IMG/VR virus record: IMGVR_UViG_2609459857_000004
Location: 1-31,179 of that record
DNA length: 31,179 nt
Direction: 5' to 3' (one strand)
From: a virus
Taxonomy: Duplodnaviria; Heunggongvirae; Uroviricota; Caudoviricetes
Part shown: one piece after another, positions 1,307-18,950 of the stretch
Numbering within the stretch: position 1 is the first letter of the stretch
Layout of the letters: every line of letters starts with the position of its first letter
Position numbers and translations under genes: made by a program
The notes under the pieces: model-generated
Databases searched by the model: none
What the model saw: only the letters and a program-made list of their open reading frames with translations
Told to the model about the DNA's origin: nothing

Positions 1307-3763
1307 TTAAAAATCAACCGGATTCGGGATCAATTTTTGCCAGATTGCTGAAACGTATTTTGCCTGGTGATTGGCGTCATCCAGTGCATTGTGGGGTACA
1401 CCTTCGAACGGGATAGCTGTTCTGGCATCAAAACCGATGGTTTTTCCCAGTTCAACAATTGTGCGCACGTCGCGATCGTTGCAGTAACGCCACGGGCAGG
1501 GGATCCCCTGCCGTTCATATGAACGGCGTAAAATTGCGTTGTCGAAAGTTGCACCATTGCCCCATACCTGCACGAATTTTTCATCTGAATGCTCGCTGAT
1601 GAATTCCCTGAATTGCAGCAGCGCATCATCTAATGGGATTTGATTTACCAAAATTGCAGATCTGACCTCGCTGGACTGCACCAGCCACCATTCGATTGTG
1701 CTTATGTCGACAGTGCCGCCACCGGTTTTTGCATCAATCGTTTTGCTGAACTCCGGCCCCATCTCTCCGGTTTCGGGATCAAAAAATTTACCGCCAATAG
1801 AGTTGATTGGTGCATCAGGGTTTGTTCCCATCGTTTCAAGGTCGACCGAAAGATGATTCCATACTCTGCTGGTGGATGTGATAACGTGATGACTGTTCAC
1901 CGTAATTAAGGGATCCGCCGTCTCGCCAGTTTCACTATCGCTGGCGTTGTCCTGAGCGCTGCCAGCATTCTCCTTGTGTGGATGTTCAGCGCCTTCCATT
2001 TCCTCCGGATCATTTTCCTGAACTTCAACCTGATTCTCTTCATTGAATGTTTCCTGGTATGTTGCGTCGCCCATCACCGCGCCACAATCAGGGCAGTTGC
2101 CGCCACCGCTCTGACCGCAGGCGGTGCAGACTTTTTCCGGTTCCTGTTGCGCTACTGGTTCGGATTGTTTCGTTTCTGGCTCGTTTTGTAACGCATTTGA
2201 GCTGTTTTGTTCCTCTTTCTGGTCGTTCTGTTCCGTTTCTTGCTGGTTCTGGTTCACAGAATCGCGGGTTTCAATCCCCTTCACCCATTTCGGATCATTC
2301 GGGTCGCTAATCCCTGCAACAAATTCACCGCGAGAGGCCGCAAGCAACTTATCGGCGTCAGGCTGGCTGATATTGGCTGCCTGCATAATTTTGTTTACTT
2401 CGTCAGCGGTAACTTTTACCTGATTAACTGGATCTATCTGTGCCTGAGCATCCAGCGATTGCGTGTCCTGGCGATGTTCAGTTGTATCCGGTTCCATTGT
2501 TTCAGCCGTTGCCTGTTCATCTGCCATTGCGTCAGACGGTTGTGATTTTTCCTCATTATTTTTTTCTTCTTCTGTCTCGCGTTCAGCAGCCAGTTCGCGG
2601 TTAACTTCTTCCAGGATATCTTTTTCCGGTGTATGTCGTGCAGCAGCGAGAGTTTCCTCGGTAGGGTTCTCGTGATCAGTCTCCGTTAAATAGGCGTTGA
2701 TATACCCCTGAAGGCGTCCCGGGTAATGATAAAACTCAGGGTGTGCGCTCCGGATAAGTGCAAAAATAGCGGCGCGGGAATAATCCAGGATACCCGGGAT
2801 TGCGCGAAGTGCTGCGGACCATTCTTTGAACGGACTTTCTTTCTTCTGGACGACTTCTTTTGCGCGACGATAAACGCTGCCCGGAATTTCATAAATATTA
2901 AAATCCATCGGAAGTGTGGCCGCTGCAATCTCCACATCCAGCGTATCGAAGGTGTGTACTAAATTCGGATTGCGATCGGTTTTGTTCCCTCCACCGGCAT
3001 TAGCGCCGGAAGCCGTGCGGGTGATACGAGAAACACGATTTCCTTTCATCCACTCTTTTGTCAGCAGACCGCGATCGGTGTAGTCAGCGCCCAGGTATGC
3101 TTCGAAAAAAGCAGTCATTAGCCCCAGGCCTGAATTGCCAGGATTAGGGAAAACTTTGTCAGTATCACGCACCAGTTTGTGGAGATCGCGAATTTCCAGT
3201 GGATCGAGCAGACTGGTTTTATGCGAAATAGCGAGGGCAGTAACAGCTGGTAGTTCTTCAGCCCGTGCAATGTGTAATGCCTGGAGTTCGTCGCGTGAAA
3301 CGTGCGTTACCGGTTTTTCGCTGCCACGTTGAGCAAGCCAGCGAATGGGCAGTTCCTGACCGGAAACCGGCAGGAGCATGTTCTCCTCAATCTCAGCCAT
3401 GTCTTCGCCGTTGACGTTGGTATTGTCAGTGCTGGCTGGTTTATCCTGAACAGAGGGCGAGGGCGCGATAAGTACCATTGTGATACCATCTTCTCCGCCT
3501 TTTTCGTATCGGTTGCAGAATTCGGTATCAAACACGCCTTCCGGAGGAAGGTCATTCACAACGGGTAAATGGACGCGAACAGGTTTTTTAAAATCCTCTT
3601 CGTCAAATCCGGCATCGTCCATTGCGACAACACCGCGTGATATTGCAACCGATAATTTTTTTGCTGTGCGCCAGTAAAAACCGCCTTTAATCCCAAGACG
3701 TTTTCTGACTTTGTCATTTTTGGCTTCGTAATATAGTGCAATTTCTTCTTTATCAGCGCTCAT
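1307..3763 (-). CDS. RecE-like prophage exonuclease with C-terminal DEDDh (DnaQ-like) 3'-5' exonuclease domain
   Basis: 818-aa ORF with RBS GAGG upstream of ATG; C-terminal ~190 aa carry Exo I (VDLETMG), Exo II ([11 protein letters not shown]) and Exo III (HNALDDA) motifs; N-terminal region recalled as RecE-like, with an acidic low-complexity E/Q/N-rich linker. Confidence 0.65.
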
Positions 3764-12141: not shown

Positions 12142-13191
12142 GTGAGGGTATTAGTGACTCCTGAAATTGCTCACCGTCTGGGGATTGTACTTTTCAGGCC
12201 CGGTCCTGATGCGATGCCTTTGTTTATGCAGGGGCGTGTGCTGGTGGAGCCGGAACCAAAAAGCATGCGAGGTCTGCCATCCGGAGTCGTTCCTGCCGTT
12301 CGCCAGCCGCTGGCGGAAGACAAATCTCTGCTGCCATTTTTCAGCGATGAGCGGGTGATTCGCGCTGCTGGCGGTGCTGGTGCACTGTCTGACTGGCTAT
12401 TGCGCCACGTTAAATCCTGCCAGTGGCCTCATGGTGACTACCATCACAGCGAAACCGTCATACATCGTTATGGTGCTGGCGCGATGGTGTTGTGCTGGCA
12501 CTGCGACAACCAGCTGCGTGACCAGACATCCGAATCACTCGGGCAACTTGCTCATCAAAACCTGTCTGCATGGATGATTGACGTCATCCGTCACGCAATG
12601 AATGGCACACAGGAGCGGGAATTATCGCTGGCTGAATTGTACTGCTGGGCTGCTGTAAATGATGTAGTGGATGCCATGACCGAAAATATGGCGCGTCGAA
12701 TCCTGAAGCTTCCGGGGGAAAAAATCCACTCAGTATACCGCGAATGCGACATCATACCGGGAGAACAGACAGCCACCAGCATACTGAAGCAGCGCACAAA
12801 AAATATTGTGCTACCGCCTCACGCCCACCAGCAACAGAACCCACCACAGGAAAAGACGGTGGTCAGCATTGCCGTTGATCCGGAGTCTCCTGAATCTTTC
12901 ATGAAGCGACCTAAACGTCGCCGCTGGGTTAACGAAAAGTACACGCGCTGGGTTAAGACACAGCCGTGTGCATGTTGTGGTAAGCCAGCCGACGATCCCC
13001 ATCACCTGATTGGTCACGGTCAGGGAGGGATGGGGACAAAAGCCCACGATATTTTCACGCTACCGCTGTGCCGGGAGCATCACAATGAACTTCATGCTGA
13101 TCCGCTGGCATTTGAAGAAAAGCATGGTTCCCAGATTGATTTAATTTTTCGTTTTCTTGATCACGCCTTTGCAACCGGCGTGCTCGGGTAA
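12142..13191 (+). CDS. DUF968 (YdfU-like) protein with C-terminal HNH/zinc-finger-like motif
   Basis: 349-aa ORF, GTG start with GGAGG RBS; C-terminal CACCGK...HHLIGHG...CREHHNELH motif; NinG/YdfU-position gene upstream of rusA. Confidence 0.6.
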   Translation: MRVLVTPEIAHRLGIVLFRPGPDAMPLFMQGRVLVEPEPKSMRGLPSGVVPAVRQPLAEDKSLLPFFSDERVIRAAGGAGALSDWLLRHVKSCQWPHGDYHHSETVIHRYGAGAMVLCWHCDNQLRDQTSESLGQLAHQNLSAWMIDVIRHAMNGTQERELSLAELYCWAAVNDVVDAMTENMARRILKLPGEKIHSVYRECDIIPGEQTATSILKQRTKNIVLPPHAHQQQNPPQEKTVVSIAVDPESPESFMKRPKRRRWVNEKYTRWVKTQPCACCGKPADDPHHLIGHGQGGMGTKAHDIFTLPLCREHHNELHADPLAFEEKHGSQIDLIFRFLDHAFATGVLG

Positions 13192-13203: not shown

Positions 13204-13563
13204 ATGCGTATAGAGTTTGTTTTGCCTTACCCGCCGACGGTGAACACCTACTGGCGACGTCGTGGCAGTACATATTTTGTATCAAAAGCCGGTGAGCGTT
13301 ATCGCCGTGATGTGGCGCTCATTGTTCGCCAGCAGCGACTGAGATTAAACCTGTCCGGAAGGCTGGCAATAAAAATTACTGCAGAGCCACCGGATAAGCG
13401 CCGCCGTGACCTGGACAATATTCTGAAAGCACCACTGGATGCGTTGACGCATGCGGGGTTGCTTATCGACGACGAGCAGTTTGATGAAATCAATATTGTG
13501 CGCGGTCAGGTCGTTCCTGGTGGTCGGTTGGGCGTGAAGATTTACAAAATTGAAAGTGAGTGA
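13204..13563 (+). CDS. rusA: Holliday junction resolvase RusA
   Basis: 119 aa; matches recalled RusA features (LPYPPTVNTYW, DRRRRDLDN, GGRL...) and size. Confidence 0.85.
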   Translation: MRIEFVLPYPPTVNTYWRRRGSTYFVSKAGERYRRDVALIVRQQRLRLNLSGRLAIKITAEPPDKRRRDLDNILKAPLDALTHAGLLIDDEQFDEINIVRGQVVPGGRLGVKIYKIESE

Positions 13564-14126
13564 GCGTAAATATGATATACCCGGAAATTACAGGCAAAAG
13601 CGGTGAGCATTTACGCCTGAAAACGCTGGAAAGTGTCTGGCTCCAGGGGAAACTGCGTATGTGGGGGCGTTGGTCGTATATTGGCGGCGGTAAGACGGGA
13701 AATATGTTCAACCAATTACTGACCTCTAAAAAGCTGACAAAAACGGCAATTAACGAGGCGCTCCGGAGGATGAAAAAAGCGGGTCTGGACAAACCTGAAC
13801 TTGAGGCTTTTTTGCGGGATATGATCAACGGCAATCAAAAAAGCTGGCTGGCACATTGTACCGATTCAGAGGCGTTAATAATCGACAGGGTTATTGGTGA
13901 AGCCCTGGCCGGTTATCCCGGGCTGCTCAATGTCCTGAGTCAGCGTTATGTGGGGCGGGGGATGACTAAGCGCAAAATGGCTGAACTGCTGAATGATGCA
14001 CACCCGGAATGGAGTTTAAGAACCTGTGAAAGACGCATTGAGCATTGGCTAAAGGTGGCAGAATTTATTTTGTACAAACCAATGGTTATGGCTTTTGGTA
14101 TAGAGAAAAAAGTTATTGCTTTTTGA
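13560..14126 (+). CDS. putative late-gene antiterminator (Q-like by position)
   Basis: 188-aa ORF after rusA, followed by a promoter-like TTGACG and an intrinsic terminator; no lambda-Q zinc finger; start GTG 13560 or ATG 13572. Confidence 0.4.
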   Translation: MSVNMIYPEITGKSGEHLRLKTLESVWLQGKLRMWGRWSYIGGGKTGNMFNQLLTSKKLTKTAINEALRRMKKAGLDKPELEAFLRDMINGNQKSWLAHCTDSEALIIDRVIGEALAGYPGLLNVLSQRYVGRGMTKRKMAELLNDAHPEWSLRTCERRIEHWLKVAEFILYKPMVMAFGIEKKVIAF

Positions 14127-14203
14127 CGTAAAAACTGCTTCAATGCCGGTACGCTTCGCAAAGCTGTACCGCGAGGCGAATAGCAGACATGGACATTTGA
14201 AAG

Positions 14204-14229
14204 AGCCCGCTTTTTGCGGGTTTTTTTTA
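14204..14229 (+). terminator. rho-independent terminator (tR'-like, downstream of Q-like gene)
   Basis: Stem GCCCGC/GCGGGT with TTTTT loop followed by a 9-T run, about 80 bp past the Q-like stop. Confidence 0.7.
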
Positions 14230-14351
14230 TGCCTGAAAAACGGTACAGGACGTTAAACGCGCTGATGGTTGCGAATACCGGTCTTTCAGCTTGCTGGCTT
14301 TTTCGACAAGAGCTATTGGTATGTCACGTTAACCAGAAAAGGGAAAAAGAC

Positions 14352-14549
14352 ATGCTAAAACAGCAGGATATGACCGAAACTGCCAGAGTGGTGTTTAATG
14401 AATTAAGCGTCACCGAACCGGCGACCGTCGGGGAAATTGCGCAGAATACGTACCTTTCACGCGAACGCTGCCAGTTAATACTGACTCAGCTTGTTATGGC
14501 GGGTCTGGCAGATTATCAGTTCGGTTGTTACAGACGCCTTCCGCAGTGA
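14352..14549 (+). CDS. hypothetical small protein (possible winged-helix)
   Basis: 65 aa from ATG 14352 (MLKQQDMTETARVVF...); stop codon lies in the loop region of a second terminator. Confidence 0.35.
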   Translation: MLKQQDMTETARVVFNELSVTEPATVGEIAQNTYLSRERCQLILTQLVMAGLADYQFGCYRRLPQ

Positions 14550-14563
14550 AGGCTTTTTTATTT
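14536..14563 (+). terminator. rho-independent terminator
   Basis: Stem GCCTTC/GAAGGC, loop CGCAGT (contains the upstream ORF stop codon), then TTTTTTATTT. Confidence 0.6.
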
Positions 14564-14699
14564 GTGGTAATGGGCGGCTGGTGGGTGTTAGCGGCACCTG
14601 CCAGCCATCTGCTCATGCGTTGGGGTCACAAGCAAACCTCAGGCCCATCTGCTTTGCGCAAAAGCGGTATGAGCCTATCAGAGAAGTGCTTATTGATCT

Positions 14700-15746
14700 A
14701 TGGCTAATACTGTAAAAATATCCAGTCGTGAGTTAATCAACGCTGATTGCCTGGAATTTATCCAGACCTTACCGGAAAACTCTGTCGATCTGATAGTCAC
14801 AGACCCGCCATACTTTAAAGTGAAGCCCGAGGGCTGGGATAATCAGTGGAAGGGTGACGATGATTACCTGAAATGGCTGGACCAGTGTCTGGCGCAATTC
14901 TGGCGGGTACTGAAGCCTGCCGGAAGTCTTTATCTGTTCTGTGGTCATCGCCTGGCATCTGATATCGAAATCATGATGCGTGAACGCTTTAATGTGCTGA
15001 ACCACATTATCTGGGCGAAGCCGTCCGGACGCTGGAACGGATGCAACAAGGAAAGCCTGCGGGCGTATTTCCCGGCAACAGAACGCATTCTGTTTGCAGA
15101 ACATTATCAGGGGCCATACCAGCCCAAAAATGACGGCTATGCGGCAAAGGGGCGCGAGCTAAAACAGCACGTCATGGCCCCGCTGATTTCTTACTTTCGT
15201 GATGCGCGTGAATCACTGGGAATAACGTCAAAACAGATAGCGGAAGCCACCGGAAAGAAAAACATGGCTTCGCACTGGTTTGGTACCAGTCAGTGGCAGT
15301 TGCCGAACGAAGGCGATTATCTGAAATTACAGGCGTTGTTTGCGCGTGTTGCAGCAGAAAAACATCAGCGCGGTGAACTGGAAAAGCCACACCACCAGCT
15401 GGTCAGCACATACAGTGAACTGAACCGGCAATATGCCAGCCTGCTGGATGAGTACAAATCTCTGCGGCGTTATTTTTCCGTATCGGCTGCCGTTCCGTAT
15501 ACGGATGTCTGGACGCACAAGCCTGTGCAGTATTACCCCGGCAAACATCCCTGTGAGAAACCGGCGGATATGTTGCGTCAGATAATTACCGCCAGCAGCC
15601 ATCCGGGAGATTTGGTTGCTGATTTTTTTATGGGGTCGGGATCAACAATAAAAGCAGCATTATCGCTGGGACGGCATGCAATAGGTGTGGAGCTGGAAGA
15701 AGAGAGATTTAACCAGACTGTAAGCGAAATAAAAGAAAATAGTTAA
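14700..15746 (+). CDS. orphan DNA methyltransferase (N6-adenine/N4-cytosine amino-MTase, beta-class order)
   Basis: 348 aa; DPPY catalytic motif near N-terminus and FxGxG (FFMGSGST) AdoMet motif near C-terminus; no adjacent restriction endonuclease gene. Confidence 0.8.
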   Translation: MANTVKISSRELINADCLEFIQTLPENSVDLIVTDPPYFKVKPEGWDNQWKGDDDYLKWLDQCLAQFWRVLKPAGSLYLFCGHRLASDIEIMMRERFNVLNHIIWAKPSGRWNGCNKESLRAYFPATERILFAEHYQGPYQPKNDGYAAKGRELKQHVMAPLISYFRDARESLGITSKQIAEATGKKNMASHWFGTSQWQLPNEGDYLKLQALFARVAAEKHQRGELEKPHHQLVSTYSELNRQYASLLDEYKSLRRYFSVSAAVPYTDVWTHKPVQYYPGKHPCEKPADMLRQIITASSHPGDLVADFFMGSGSTIKAALSLGRHAIGVELEEERFNQTVSEIKENS

Positions 15747-15825
15747 ATATGTGTGTGATTATTTGTAATTAATCACGAGTGATAGAAATTTATACATATG
15801 TTTACTAATATTGACACTATGTTTA

Positions 15826-15853
15826 TTGAAATAGTGTTTGCCCTCATTAATAT
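15826..15853 (+). promoter_or_regulatory. candidate promoter for the tRNA genes
   Basis: TTGAAA (15826-15831), 16-nt spacer, TAATAT (15848-15853), about 75 bp upstream of the first tRNA. Confidence 0.3.
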
Positions 15854-15927
15854 CGATAGTCGGTTCCGAGGAGATGACAGGGAAATAATGCATATATCGG
15901 TCGTTTTATTTTTTCCGAGGAACCGTT

Positions 15928-16000
15928 GCCGATTTAACTTAGCAGACAAAGCAACTGACTTGTAATCACCGGGTCGCCAGTTCGATTCCGGTAATCGGCA
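15928..16000 (+). tRNA. tRNA-like gene, anticodon UGU (Thr) with weak D and anticodon stems (possible pseudo-tRNA)
   Basis: 7-bp acceptor stem GCCGATT/AATCGGC, T-loop TTCGATT, anticodon loop CTTGTAA at canonical positions 32-38; anticodon stem only 3 of 5 pairs; followed by CTA not CCA. Confidence 0.4.
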
Positions 16001-16006
16001 CTATAT

Positions 16007-16081
<75 letters not shown>

Positions 16082-16442
16082 GCATTTGAAATAAGCCTTA
16101 TTGTATTGCAGCACTGGCGTATTTTTATTACGTGGGAGCAGGTTGTTTTGAAAAAGCATTCTGTTCTCTGGCTATGATTTGAGGCCAGGTTAGCCTCAGT
16201 GCTGATTTTTTTACGGCAGCAGAATGGTGCATTGCTGGTTGGGATTTTGTATTTCCTGGCAGGGTCGGTGATGCATCATTCTGGTGTTGTAAATAACACC
16301 ATCGGGGCGCTCCTCAGGGCGAGGGTGGTTAAAAGAGTCGGTTTAGCGGGAAACCACAGTATTCATACAGGACGGAATACTTCGGGAGGCACCCGACGCC
16401 TCGATTTTATTACAATTAAAAAATTCATTCCTTGCATTGACC

Positions 16443-16469
16443 AACCGCCGTATCTGGCGGTTTTTTTTA
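16443..16469 (+). terminator. rho-independent terminator
   Basis: 7-bp stem AACCGCC/GGCGGTT, 6-nt loop, 8-T run. Confidence 0.65.
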
Positions 16470-16480
16470 TTCTTAATTCG

Positions 16481-16515
16481 AAAAAAGAAAACACGGACAC
16501 TGATAATGTCCGTGT
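16481..16515 (-). terminator. rho-independent terminator (minus-strand orientation)
   Basis: Perfect 9-bp stem ACACGGACA/TGTCCGTGT with 7-nt loop; A-run on plus strand gives a U-tract on the minus strand. Confidence 0.5.
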
Positions 16516-16790
16516 GGCAATGCCATGTAAGTCAGCGATGAATATGGCGCAAAAAAAGCGCGGCTGTCGGATTAACGCCGCGGGACAAAGTCCATGAAGA
16601 ATAATAAGTATTGGCCCCCTTCCGGGGACATGTTCATACTACCAAGATTCAGAAGTGGTTTAAATCCTCAAATTAACTTTAATTTCCGATAAGTCTTATT
16701 TCATTTCTTTGCGCCACATCTGGAGCTCATCAAATAACGCCACGCAAAGGGCGTCTGCGGATGCCGGTGCTTTTGACGGGGTGTTTTTTA

Positions 16791-16816
16791 CGGGCCGCTG
16801 GTGGCCCTTTTTTTAT
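16791..16816 (+). terminator. rho-independent terminator immediately upstream of the holin gene
   Basis: Stem GGGCC/GGCCC with 6-nt loop and 7-T run, ending 14 nt before the holin RBS. Confidence 0.6.
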
Positions 16817-16833
16817 TTACAGGAGAAAAAAGT

Positions 16834-17226
16834 ATGTCTGAACCCTTATCCGGTTCCGGCACGGCTGCGGCGCTCGGCGGGGCGACGGTGTACGGGCTGT
16901 TTACCGGGACGGATTTCGGGATTGTGTTTGGTGCGTTCGCCGGGGCGTTATTTGTGGCAACGATGCCGCAGGCGCTTTCAGCCTGGCGTGTGGCGGCGCA
17001 TTTTCTGGTGTCGTTCATTATCGGCGTGCTGGGGGCAGAGGTTCTGGCGTCATGGCTGGTAAAGCATACAGGGTTTGACGGTGCACCTGTCGACGCACTG
17101 TGTGCAGTGCTGGTGTCAGTGGTGTCGGTGAAGATTCTGTCGTTCATCCACCAGCAGGATATTGCATCACTGGTGTCCGGTGTGTTCTCCCGCCTGCGGG
17201 GCGGAGGAGGCGGCAATGTTAAGTAA
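16834..17226 (+). CDS. putative holin (multi-pass membrane protein)
   Basis: 130 aa from ATG 16834 with AGGAG RBS; Gly/Ala-rich hydrophobic segments; first gene of the lysis cassette. Confidence 0.55.
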   Translation: MSEPLSGSGTAAALGGATVYGLFTGTDFGIVFGAFAGALFVATMPQALSAWRVAAHFLVSFIIGVLGAEVLASWLVKHTGFDGAPVDALCAVLVSVVSVKILSFIHQQDIASLVSGVFSRLRGGGGGNVK

Positions 17227-18599: not shown

Positions 18600-18950
18600 A
18601 TGCCATCACGAATCCCCCGCACATGCCGTAAACGTGGATGTGCAGGTACAACCACAGACAGTTCTGGTTACTGCGATAAACATCGTGGTGAAGGATGGGC
18701 ACAGCATCAACGCGGACTGAGCCGCCACCAGCGCGGCTATGGCTCAAAATGGACGGTGATTCGTGCCCGTCTTCTGAAGCGCGATAAAGGTCTGTGTCAG
18801 TTGTGTCTGCGTGTCGGTGTGGTGAGCGAGGCGAAAACCGTCGACCACATCATCCCGAAAGCGCATGGCGGGACAGACGCAGACAGCAACCTGCAGAGTC
18901 TGTGCTGGCCCTGCCACAAAGCGAAAACAGCGCGTGAACGAATAAAGTGA
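18600..18950 (+). CDS. HNH endonuclease (packaging-associated)
   Basis: 116 aa; HNH motif DHIIPKAHGG...N...CWPCH; sits immediately upstream of the terminase genes. Confidence 0.8.
   Translation: MPSRIPRTCRKRGCAGTTTDSSGYCDKHRGEGWAQHQRGLSRHQRGYGSKWTVIRARLLKRDKGLCQLCLRVGVVSEAKTVDHIIPKAHGGTDADSNLQSLCWPCHKAKTARERIK

Follow-up and report, generated by a model that had tools for sequence, protein, structure and literature searches.

Prophages of E. coli O104:H4 C227-11 carry the methyltransferases M.EcoGII and M.EcoGI (Murray et al. 2018, PMC5778455). As described there, M.EcoGII methylates adenine in any context, in double-stranded DNA, single-stranded DNA, DNA:RNA hybrids and RNA; it is prophage-borne, is not expressed in the lysogen, slows growth if made constitutively, and is proposed to defeat host restriction. 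An EcoSal review agrees on its lack of specificity, its prophage location, its silence, its cost to growth and its proposed role (PMC12707154). In the SUPREM study, both M.EcoGII and the engineered variants that were assayed are still largely non-sequence-specific (PMC11551740). Phage Mu makes a toxic late adenine-modifying anti-restriction enzyme, Mom, whose start is occluded by mRNA structure; Com, a protein of 62 residues encoded just upstream, binds the mRNA and melts this translation-inhibition structure (Hattman; Wulczyn & Kahmann; PMC6483171). Hin1523, Nma1821 and Hia5 are non-specific N6-methyladenine enzymes of prophages, undetectable in lysogens and encoded 3' of the gene of a small regulator, for which binding sites have been proposed at the 5' end of the enzyme gene (Drozdz et al. 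2012, PMC3299994). In lambdoid phages that make PR'-tR' short transcripts such as StxS, the downstream genes are expressed only after Q antitermination (PMC7547250). Here we describe a window of 31,179 nts (positions 1 to 31,179 of the IMG/VR virus record IMGVR_UViG_2609459857_000004), which is a lambdoid prophage with a methyltransferase of the M.EcoGII family at 14700-15746. Between its Q-like antiterminator gene and the methyltransferase lie two intrinsic terminators (T1 and T2), the gene of a small winged-helix (wH) protein, and a structured leader RNA. The wH gene and the folded leader probably keep a toxic enzyme off until the lytic phase. The features of this unit, each with the evidence used to call it, are the following.

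14199-14229, plus strand: intrinsic terminator T1, of the tR' type (fold; 8 U)
14290-14327, plus strand: conserved block upstream of the wH gene (conservation; linked to wH)
14352-14549, plus strand: wH gene, 65 residues (homologues; AlphaFold2; PHROG 331)
14536-14563, plus strand: intrinsic terminator T2, GCCUUC-CGCAGU-GAAGGC followed by UUUUUUAUUU, with its hairpin at 14536-14553 (scanner and fold)
14563-14699, plus strand: structured 5' leader RNA of the methyltransferase, 137 nts (conservation; covariance model R1)
14570-14616, plus strand: leader domain I, the long hairpin P1a+P2, starting at an invariant AUG at 14570 (minimum free energy (MFE) folds of 6 diverse leaders)
14608-14636, plus strand: alternative helix P3, UCUGCU (14608-14613) with AGCAAA (14631-14636) (covariation)
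14623-14634, plus strand: 5' strand of the sequestering helix, GGGUCA (14623-14628) and AAGCA (14630-14634) (MFE; covariation)
14641-14676, plus strand: leader hairpin P4, AGGC...GCCU around GCUUU...AAAGC (covariation)
14687-14699, plus strand: translation-initiation region of the methyltransferase, UGCUU-AU-UGAUCU, which is the 3' strand of the sequestering helix (conservation; MFE)
14700-15746, plus strand: beta-class methyltransferase of the M.EcoGII family, 348 residues, predicted to act on the N6 of adenine in DNA (and RNA) (PF01555; alignment)

By analogy, the closest functional precedent for this unit is Mu com/mom. The predicted window enzyme resembles Mom in being a toxic, late, adenine-modifying, anti-restriction enzyme; a small protein is encoded directly 5' of the modifier in both (62 residues for Com, 65 for wH), and in both mRNA structure occludes the start of the modifier, computationally so in the window (6/6 MFE folds). 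Com is a CCCC zinc finger, whereas wH, which shares no homology with Com, is a predicted winged helix with only two conserved Cys. The window enzyme is a methyltransferase, which Mom is not, and the Dam sites of mom act at a promoter, whereas no promoter is evident near the GATC of the window. The position of Com is matched by wH, yet wH is dispensable in about 10-20% of loci, and any contact between wH and the leader is putative. Hin1523, Nma1821 and Hia5 share the layout of the window, with a small gene 5' of the enzyme gene; they are alpha-class enzymes with the reversed motif order, found in Mu-like phages and accompanied by a homologue of Com, whereas the window has a beta-class enzyme in a lambdoid prophage accompanied by wH. 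M.EcoGII is the closest in the enzyme itself: both are prophage-borne with the order DPPY, target recognition domain (TRD), FxGxG, and have 348 residues here and 349 there, with about 50 substitutions separating from M.EcoGII a window enzyme that is known here from its sequence. Phage 1720a-02, whose enzyme PMC5778455 names as a relative, has the same wH gene, leader and post-Q position as the window; the passages of that paper that were searched mention neither an upstream wH gene nor a leader (the word "upstream" occurs 0 times in them).

The earlier note on this DNA had proposed an orphan amino-methyltransferase with DPPY and FxGxG motifs, and this identification stands. The reading frame matches PF01555 (N6_N4_Mtase) with an E-value of 3.7e-45 and 155 bits, for a cut-off of 26.7, over residues 29-340. 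DPPY occupies residues 35-38 (14802-14813) and FMGSG, the FxGxG motif, residues 310-314 (15627-15641); the order of DPPY, a central TRD and a C-terminal FxGxG is that of the beta class, as it is described in PMC5778455. By BLASTP against M.EcoGII, for which the reference is a machine-read sequence with some evident errors, taken from the supplement of PMC11551740, 296/347 residues are identical (85%) and 92% are positives over the full length. The alignment runs through the whole TRD (residues ~160-237), and its only two gaps are single residues, both at places where the machine-read reference is visibly corrupted. Identity to the enzyme of phage 1720a-02, which Murray et al. 2018 call "very similar" to M.EcoGII (PMC5778455), is 86%. 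The best solved structures in a PDB sequence search are 9c3u and 8urk (unnamed), followed by RsrI, MboIIA and CcrM (E<=1e-16); these are core-domain homologues that match the catalytic core, and the search returned no solved structure of the M.EcoGII family. On this homology, the enzyme is a prophage copy of the known M.EcoGII family and not a novel enzyme. Because the identity of about 85% extends over the full length, TRD included, its expected activity is N6-adenine methylation in any context, with no motif. The earlier note had instead expected a new methylation motif, for which we find no support, and it would have taken the absence of a new motif as a refutation; that test is ill-posed, since motif-less methylation would confirm the assignment to M.EcoGII.

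We find no restriction endonuclease gene or remnant adjoining the methyltransferase within the window. In about 180 related loci, the recurrent clusters of downstream open reading frames (ORFs), judged by eye, are lysis-like and Stx2A-like clusters, and none is endonuclease-like. The enzyme is an orphan methyltransferase in the strict sense, as the earlier note had it. The anti-restriction function suggested there also fits, as the function proposed for the close relative M.EcoGII (PMC5778455; PMC12707154).

The leader RNA was the unexpected element of the unit. Our relatives are 80 genome loci with methyltransferases 60-87% identical to that of the window, from Escherichia to Proteus, Morganella, Xenorhabdus and Photorhabdus. 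Across them the mean column identity of the leader is 83%, which exceeds that of the flanks and of the protein. The covariance model R1 finds one match per locus, directly 5' of the methyltransferase, with 103-170 bits, and scores above 150 bits in loci where other cargo has replaced wH. In a pattern scan of IMG/VR (at least 120 contigs), the methyltransferase lies about 130 nts 3' of the leader in 118 of the 119 copies with room for it, among the matches listed. In Rfam 15, the interval 13500-17000 has no match at E<=1 for the leader, and 14540-14720 searched alone returns only chance-level matches to miRNAs and frameshift elements (E 3.7-4.7). The leader is thus absent from Rfam 15, and the literature searched contains no description of either the leader or the wH gene.

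In an alignment of 94 distinct leaders, we observe two mutually exclusive folds, both supported by covariation. Fold 1 consists of P2, P3 and P4. With a 6-bp sequestering helix added as a pseudoknot, it is 84% paired, compared to 29-44% in slid controls; it has 15 pairs changed on both sides, and 0/500 shuffles are as good. P2 has compensatory changes in 6 pairs. In P3 (UUCGCU/AGCGAA), five pairs are changed on both sides, one of which appears as UA in 34 leaders, CG in 30, AU in 20 and UG in 5. For P4 the paired fraction is 87-91%, and both sides have changed in 3 of its pairs. In Fold 2, P2 is extended by P1a (AUGGGC/GCUCAU), which is 99% paired with one-sided changes only, and a long-range helix joins (A/G)GGUCAC-AAGCG to CGCUU-AC-UGAUCY directly before the AUG. 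Over the 94 leaders this long-range helix is 91.3% paired; both sides have changed in 5 of its pairs, with compensatory changes in the Proteus/Morganella lineage among them. Fold 2 is the MFE structure in 6/6 diverse leaders folded separately, with UGAUCY sequestered in each (z-scores -1.4 to -4.2). P3 excludes both P1a and the sequestering helix. The whole leader structures are 84-90% paired against 29-46% for slid controls, and 0/500 shuffles reach the observed covariation. The off state, as modelled, is well supported computationally.

The initiation region that Fold 2 buries has no canonical Shine-Dalgarno sequence, and TGATC(T/C)ATG is kept in nearly all loci. The sequence UGAUCY complements GGAUCA in the 16S rRNA 3' end and is suitably spaced from the AUG; GGGUCA/GGAUCA further upstream would on this reading serve as an anti-ribosome-binding mimic. 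The earlier note had placed a GATC overlapping the start region of the methyltransferase; the GATC is there (14695-14698), but it ends one base before the ATG and is adjacent, not overlapping. Its A, T and C are invariant in the 94 leaders and its G is at least 90% conserved. Three other structural candidates were set aside. The default RNAalifold consensus includes a long-range helix UGGGC/GCCCA, whose strands are invariant and which conflicts with the covarying P4. A local hairpin at the start, P5 (AUCAG/CUGAU), is 82% paired with no compensatory change, and the long-range helix is preferred over it. Attenuation through the tandem Trp codons of an MGGWWVL peptide was rejected as the feature under conservation, since the Proteus-type peptide is wholly different and the RNA pairing is kept.

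Upstream of the leader, the methyltransferase sits behind two terminators in the late operon. The 188-residue product of the Q-like gene matches DUF1133 (E=4.8e-105) and Phage_antitermQ (29.3 bits for a cut-off of 26) in Pfam, and PHROG 753, "anti-termination protein Q-like" (E=4.8e-80); its relatives carry the label "antitermination protein Q" in phage records. On the 3' side of the methyltransferase there are two tRNA-type genes, two holins, an M15 endolysin, an HNH endonuclease and terminase, portal and capsid genes. With the Q-like gene 5' and the lysis, packaging and structural genes 3', the methyltransferase heads the late operon, in agreement with the place given to it in the earlier note. 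The two intrinsic terminators reported there around the 65-residue ORF are both present, and both fit the Rho-independent criterion of a G+C-rich hairpin followed by a U-tract. T1 reads AAAGAGCCCGC-UUUUU-GCGGGUUUUUUUU, with a folding free energy of -16.9 kcal/mol and a z-score of -5.4 (0/200 shuffles equally stable); a simple scanner does not report it, the likely reason being that the A-U pairs extending the stem absorb the U-tract. T2 has -8.9 kcal/mol and a z-score of -2.05 (7/200 shuffles equally stable), and its hairpin encloses the TGA stop of the small ORF (14547-14549). The region contains 18 terminator-like sites where 5.7 +/- 2.6 are expected. Because these two terminators lie 5' of it, expression of the methyltransferase would have to depend on read-through, in line with what the earlier note proposed.

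A hairpin followed by a U-run is found in 116/139 distinct related upstream regions. The related T1-like terminator ends near -129 from the wH ATG in most of the rows inspected, with a range from about -83 to -130. Megablast matches to phages with other Q types start at ~14216-14223, at the U-tract of T1, which indicates that the mobile wH-leader-methyltransferase unit begins just past the T1 stem. From this start and the conserved position, we take T1 to be the tR'-type terminator of whichever Q/PR' system lies 5'. At the place of T2, most Enterobacteriaceae loci, wH-less ones included, have an equivalent hairpin with different, complementary stems; its U-tract ranges from 0 to 8 U, excellent in the window and its E. 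coli relatives and poor elsewhere. T2 is a canonical terminator in the window and may be a partial one elsewhere. As a separate observation, a putative short transcript ending at T1 has a sub-threshold Rfam match to isrK at 14153-14226, with 19.8 bits (E=0.33) for a gathering threshold of 50. StxS (PMC7547250) and IsrK of Gifsy-1 are likewise short terminated transcripts directly after a Q gene, and the T1 transcript may be a counterpart of the PR'-tR' small RNAs StxS or HnrS.

The small ORF between the terminators is a real conserved gene. It has 334 homologues at E<=1e-3. In 95 distinct versions across genera, the protein has 62-71 residues and shares the motifs MLKxxDMT and RCQL(I/L)LTQxxxAGL. 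By tblastn, wH is found ~345 to 155 nts 5' of the methyltransferase in about 60/78 genome loci, with any Q type, and it lies 5' of the leader in 107/116 copies on viral contigs of IMG/VR, among the matches listed; its spacing to the methyltransferase is near-constant across genera. The AlphaFold2 model (pLDDT, the predicted local distance difference test, 89.8) is confidently a winged helix of the form H-H-H-beta-hairpin. Foldseek finds only generic winged-helix domains (E ~2e-3, TM-scores 0.6-0.83), in the N-termini of IclR and MarR, the dimerisation domains of O-methyltransferases, Z-alpha and SelB. In PHROG, wH matches family 331, annotated "unknown function". Its match to Pfam TrmB (PF01978), the name used by the NCBI pipeline, is at 18 bits (E=0.0026), below the cut-off of 25.6; there is no NCBIfam match, and the Pfam, PHROG and NCBIfam searches give no Com-like profile.

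The block upstream of wH, CTTGCTG-N11-(C/A)AGAG(T/C)TAYnTGTrTGTCA, lies about -60 to -25 from the wH ATG from Escherichia to Xenorhabdus and Proteus, and it is missing wherever other cargo replaces wH. We take it as a putative signal for the expression of wH itself, or as its operator. A sigma-70 scan calls no promoter in it, and the candidates that we tried in or around it were discarded: a sigma-54 promoter, for which spacing and flanks are unconserved; a consensus sigma-70 promoter, for which the -10 candidate is TAYnTG without the final T; and a common "CAGAGTTA" site 5' of both wH and the methyltransferase, of which only CAGAG is common to both, non-significantly.

The slot between the tR'-type terminator and the leader, of which wH is the most frequent occupant, looks like a cargo hotspot. 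In wH-less loci (L006-L010, L013, L018, L019, L023, L035, L049, L057, L072 and L078), unrelated cargo sits between the upstream terminator and the leader, at about -900 to -150 from the methyltransferase start. Examples are proteins of 220-231 residues (L009, L010, L049), a Cys-rich protein of 79 residues (L013, L018), a protein of 219 residues (L023) and a transposase-like ORF (L057). In the Xenorhabdus and Photorhabdus loci (L044-L071), the leader is about 90 nts long; P2 is kept with covarying stems, the P3/P4 domain is gone, and the start context is CGAU(G/U)UAUG and not UGAUCUAUG. One IMG/VR contig (L149) has two copies of wH and leader about 3 kb apart on the minus strand, at 344-422 and 3330-3408. 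Behind the inner copy there is only a short methyltransferase match (residues 1-57), and the outer one is cut off where the locus ends; the contig may have undergone a tandem rearrangement or carry a decayed copy.

From these elements, we consider it likely that the window carries an M.EcoGII-type enzyme kept silent in the lysogen by T1, T2 and the leader, and released late by Q to hypermethylate progeny DNA against restriction. In the lysogen, transcripts from the late promoter would stop at T1, and any leakage would meet T2. In mRNA that leaks through, GGGUCA-AAGCA (14623-14634) would pair with UGCUU..UGAUCU (14687-14699) and bury the non-canonical ribosome-binding region, so that the harmful enzyme would be kept off. 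The two terminators and the start-sequestering leader are consistent with the predicted silence in the lysogen. Upon induction, RNA polymerase modified by Q would pass both terminators; this transcriptional logic is taken from established lambdoid biology. The leader would then switch, with P3 (14608-14613 with 14631-14636) displacing P1a and the sequestering helix. The enzyme, made late, would hypermethylate the progeny phage DNA and give it broad protection against adenine-sensitive restriction in the next host. More tentatively, and as something we find quite possible though short of probable, the leader would be an uncatalogued bistable cis-regulatory RNA for M.EcoGII-type genes, acting as an anti-ribosome-binding-site mimic against UGAUCY and switched late by a specific trigger. 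The candidate triggers, which share the same tentative standing, are a Com-like action of wH (convergent and non-homologous), translation from the upstream AUG, and feedback from the RNA-methylating enzyme. For the trigger and more generally, wH is the best candidate for a cassette-specific regulator, acting on translation as a Com-like activator or on DNA as an autoregulator; it may also be a modulator or an unrelated moron.

Several observations weigh against this account. The consensus promoter scan calls no late promoter at 14100-14200, between the Q-like gene and T1; by eye, the interval has a weak TTGCTT-17-TTCAAT candidate with an upstream TG. The U-tract of T2 is weak in many relatives. 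The identity of about 85% to M.EcoGII is approximate, owing to the errors of the machine-read reference, and with some 15% of the residues differing from M.EcoGII, it bears on the predicted lack of specificity that a few substitutions in a TRD can shift it. In the leader, the 5' strands of P1a and of the sequestering helix are near-invariant, so their support is in part conservation and not covariation, and the shuffle statistics are inflated by the close kinship of many of the 94 leaders. Regarding wH, the leader stays intact in the wH-less loci, so wH cannot be an obligatory activator. Conversely, Xenorhabdus and Photorhabdus retain wH while the leader shrinks to the P2 hairpin, a hint that any common target of wH is P2 or the upstream DNA block.

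The alternatives to a regulated wH-leader unit concern mostly what wH and the leader do. It is possible, if on the doubtful side, that wH is an independent moron served by a promoter-like block (14290-14327) and a terminator (T2) of its own, that the prophage expresses it for an unrelated purpose such as regulating host or other phage genes, that it only has a cargo slot in common with the methyltransferase, and that the leader alone controls the methyltransferase. An upstream terminator, a conserved block, an ORF and a downstream terminator are the classical layout of a moron; the block travels with wH and is absent where other cargo sits, and in about 10-20% of the loci unrelated genes fill the slot with leader and methyltransferase intact. 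Within the methyltransferase loci covered, the linkage is unexpectedly tight for a moron, though: wH keeps a near-constant distance, with any Q type, in the 107/116 listed viral copies mentioned above and across genera, and the block is not a recognisable sigma-70 promoter. A different and rather unlikely possibility accounts for the function of the leader without wH. In it, a ribosome translating a short upstream ORF from the invariant AUG at 14570 melts P1a/P2, frees UUCGCU for P3 and releases the methyltransferase start. AAUGGGCG is invariant in the 94 leaders, and the AUG stands at the base of P1a, which excludes P3. Nevertheless, no convincing Shine-Dalgarno sequence precedes the AUG at 14570, and the peptide is not conserved, since most loci encode 7 codons (MGGWWVL), those of Proteus about 18 and this window 45; the pairing of AUGGGC explains the invariance equally well, and the AUG itself would lie buried in P1a.

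The two remaining alternatives concern the enzyme. The epigenetic control suggested in the earlier note, with a sequence-specific orphan methyltransferase in a Dam/CcrM-like role and the adjacent GATC as a Dam-sensitive site, appears to us very improbable. Homology to CcrM and other site-specific beta-class enzymes can be detected, but it is confined to the catalytic core (E ~1e-16 to 1e-25), compared to 85% full-length identity to M.EcoGII. There is a GATC beside the start codon, and a GATC or GGTC recurs in the leader loop; however, these two elements pair as RNA in a helix that shows compensatory changes, the consensus scan places no promoter near the GATC, and the 102 GATC sites of the window are in line with the 114 +/- 9.5 expected by chance. 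The GATC is better explained as a signal for initiation and sequestration at the RNA level than as a Dam site. That the methyltransferase is what remains of a decayed Type II restriction-modification system has, in our view, almost no probability. Beta-class N6/N4 methyltransferases are common in such systems, but neither the window nor, judged by eye, the ~180 related loci show an adjoining endonuclease, the flanks are conserved elements of phage late operons, and the sole HNH gene is 2.9 kb away.

Of 5426 complete E. coli genomes, 2178 contain the 1.7-kb module of wH, leader and methyltransferase; with 4723 matching places in total and as many as 7 in one genome, it appears that many strains carry multiple silent copies of a potentially harmful methyltransferase. 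Records of Stx2a, Stx2c and Stx2d phages and of phiP27 match it too, under the annotation "DNA methylase | hypothetical protein". In phage 1720a-02 (L001), the module lies between the antiterminator Q gene and stx2A, directly 5' of stx2A; in Stx2 phages, a cassette between the Q gene and stx2 may affect the transcription that reaches the toxin genes. The enzyme itself adds little, as a further copy of a family that some 40% of the complete E. coli genomes carry, often more than once each, and that Stx2-converting phages carry as well; its identification is real but ordinary. Even so, annotators of such loci should expect non-specific adenine methylation and not a motif, which alters the design and the interpretation of methylome and restriction experiments. 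M.EcoGII is widely used for chromatin footprinting and RNA engineering, and its natural regulation is not described in the literature searched. The leader and wH, neither of which the earlier note had recognised as a conserved structured RNA or as a conserved methyltransferase-linked gene, give a testable account of how a genome-wide methylator could be silenced and then released. The merit for follow-up lies in this uncatalogued bistable leader, supported by covariation, and in its linked wH gene.

The neighbouring genes in the window are the following.

12142-13191, plus strand: DUF968/HNHc gene
13204-13563, plus strand: RusA gene
13560-14126, plus strand: Q-like late antiterminator gene, 188 residues (Pfam and PHROG profiles)
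15928-16000 and 16007-16081, plus strand: adjacent pair of tRNA-type genes just 3' of the methyltransferase (Rfam, 45.9 and 65.6 bits)
18600-18950, plus strand: HNH endonuclease gene, directly 5' of the terminase small-subunit gene

The position of this HNH gene beside the terminase small-subunit gene is presumably that of the packaging-associated HNH of HK97-like phages, which argues that it is not the restriction partner of the methyltransferase. Of the two tRNA-type genes, ARAGORN reports only the second (16007-16081), as tRNA-Gly(UCC); the first may thus be an atypical gene or a degenerate one. Between this pair and the first holin, about 700 nts (16100-16800) contain no ORF with a Pfam match. 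This interval has several terminator-like hairpins, for example at 16179-16199, 16386-16402 and 16443-16462, and at 16276-16472 there is a weak match to the small RNA STnc100 (22 bits, E=0.069).

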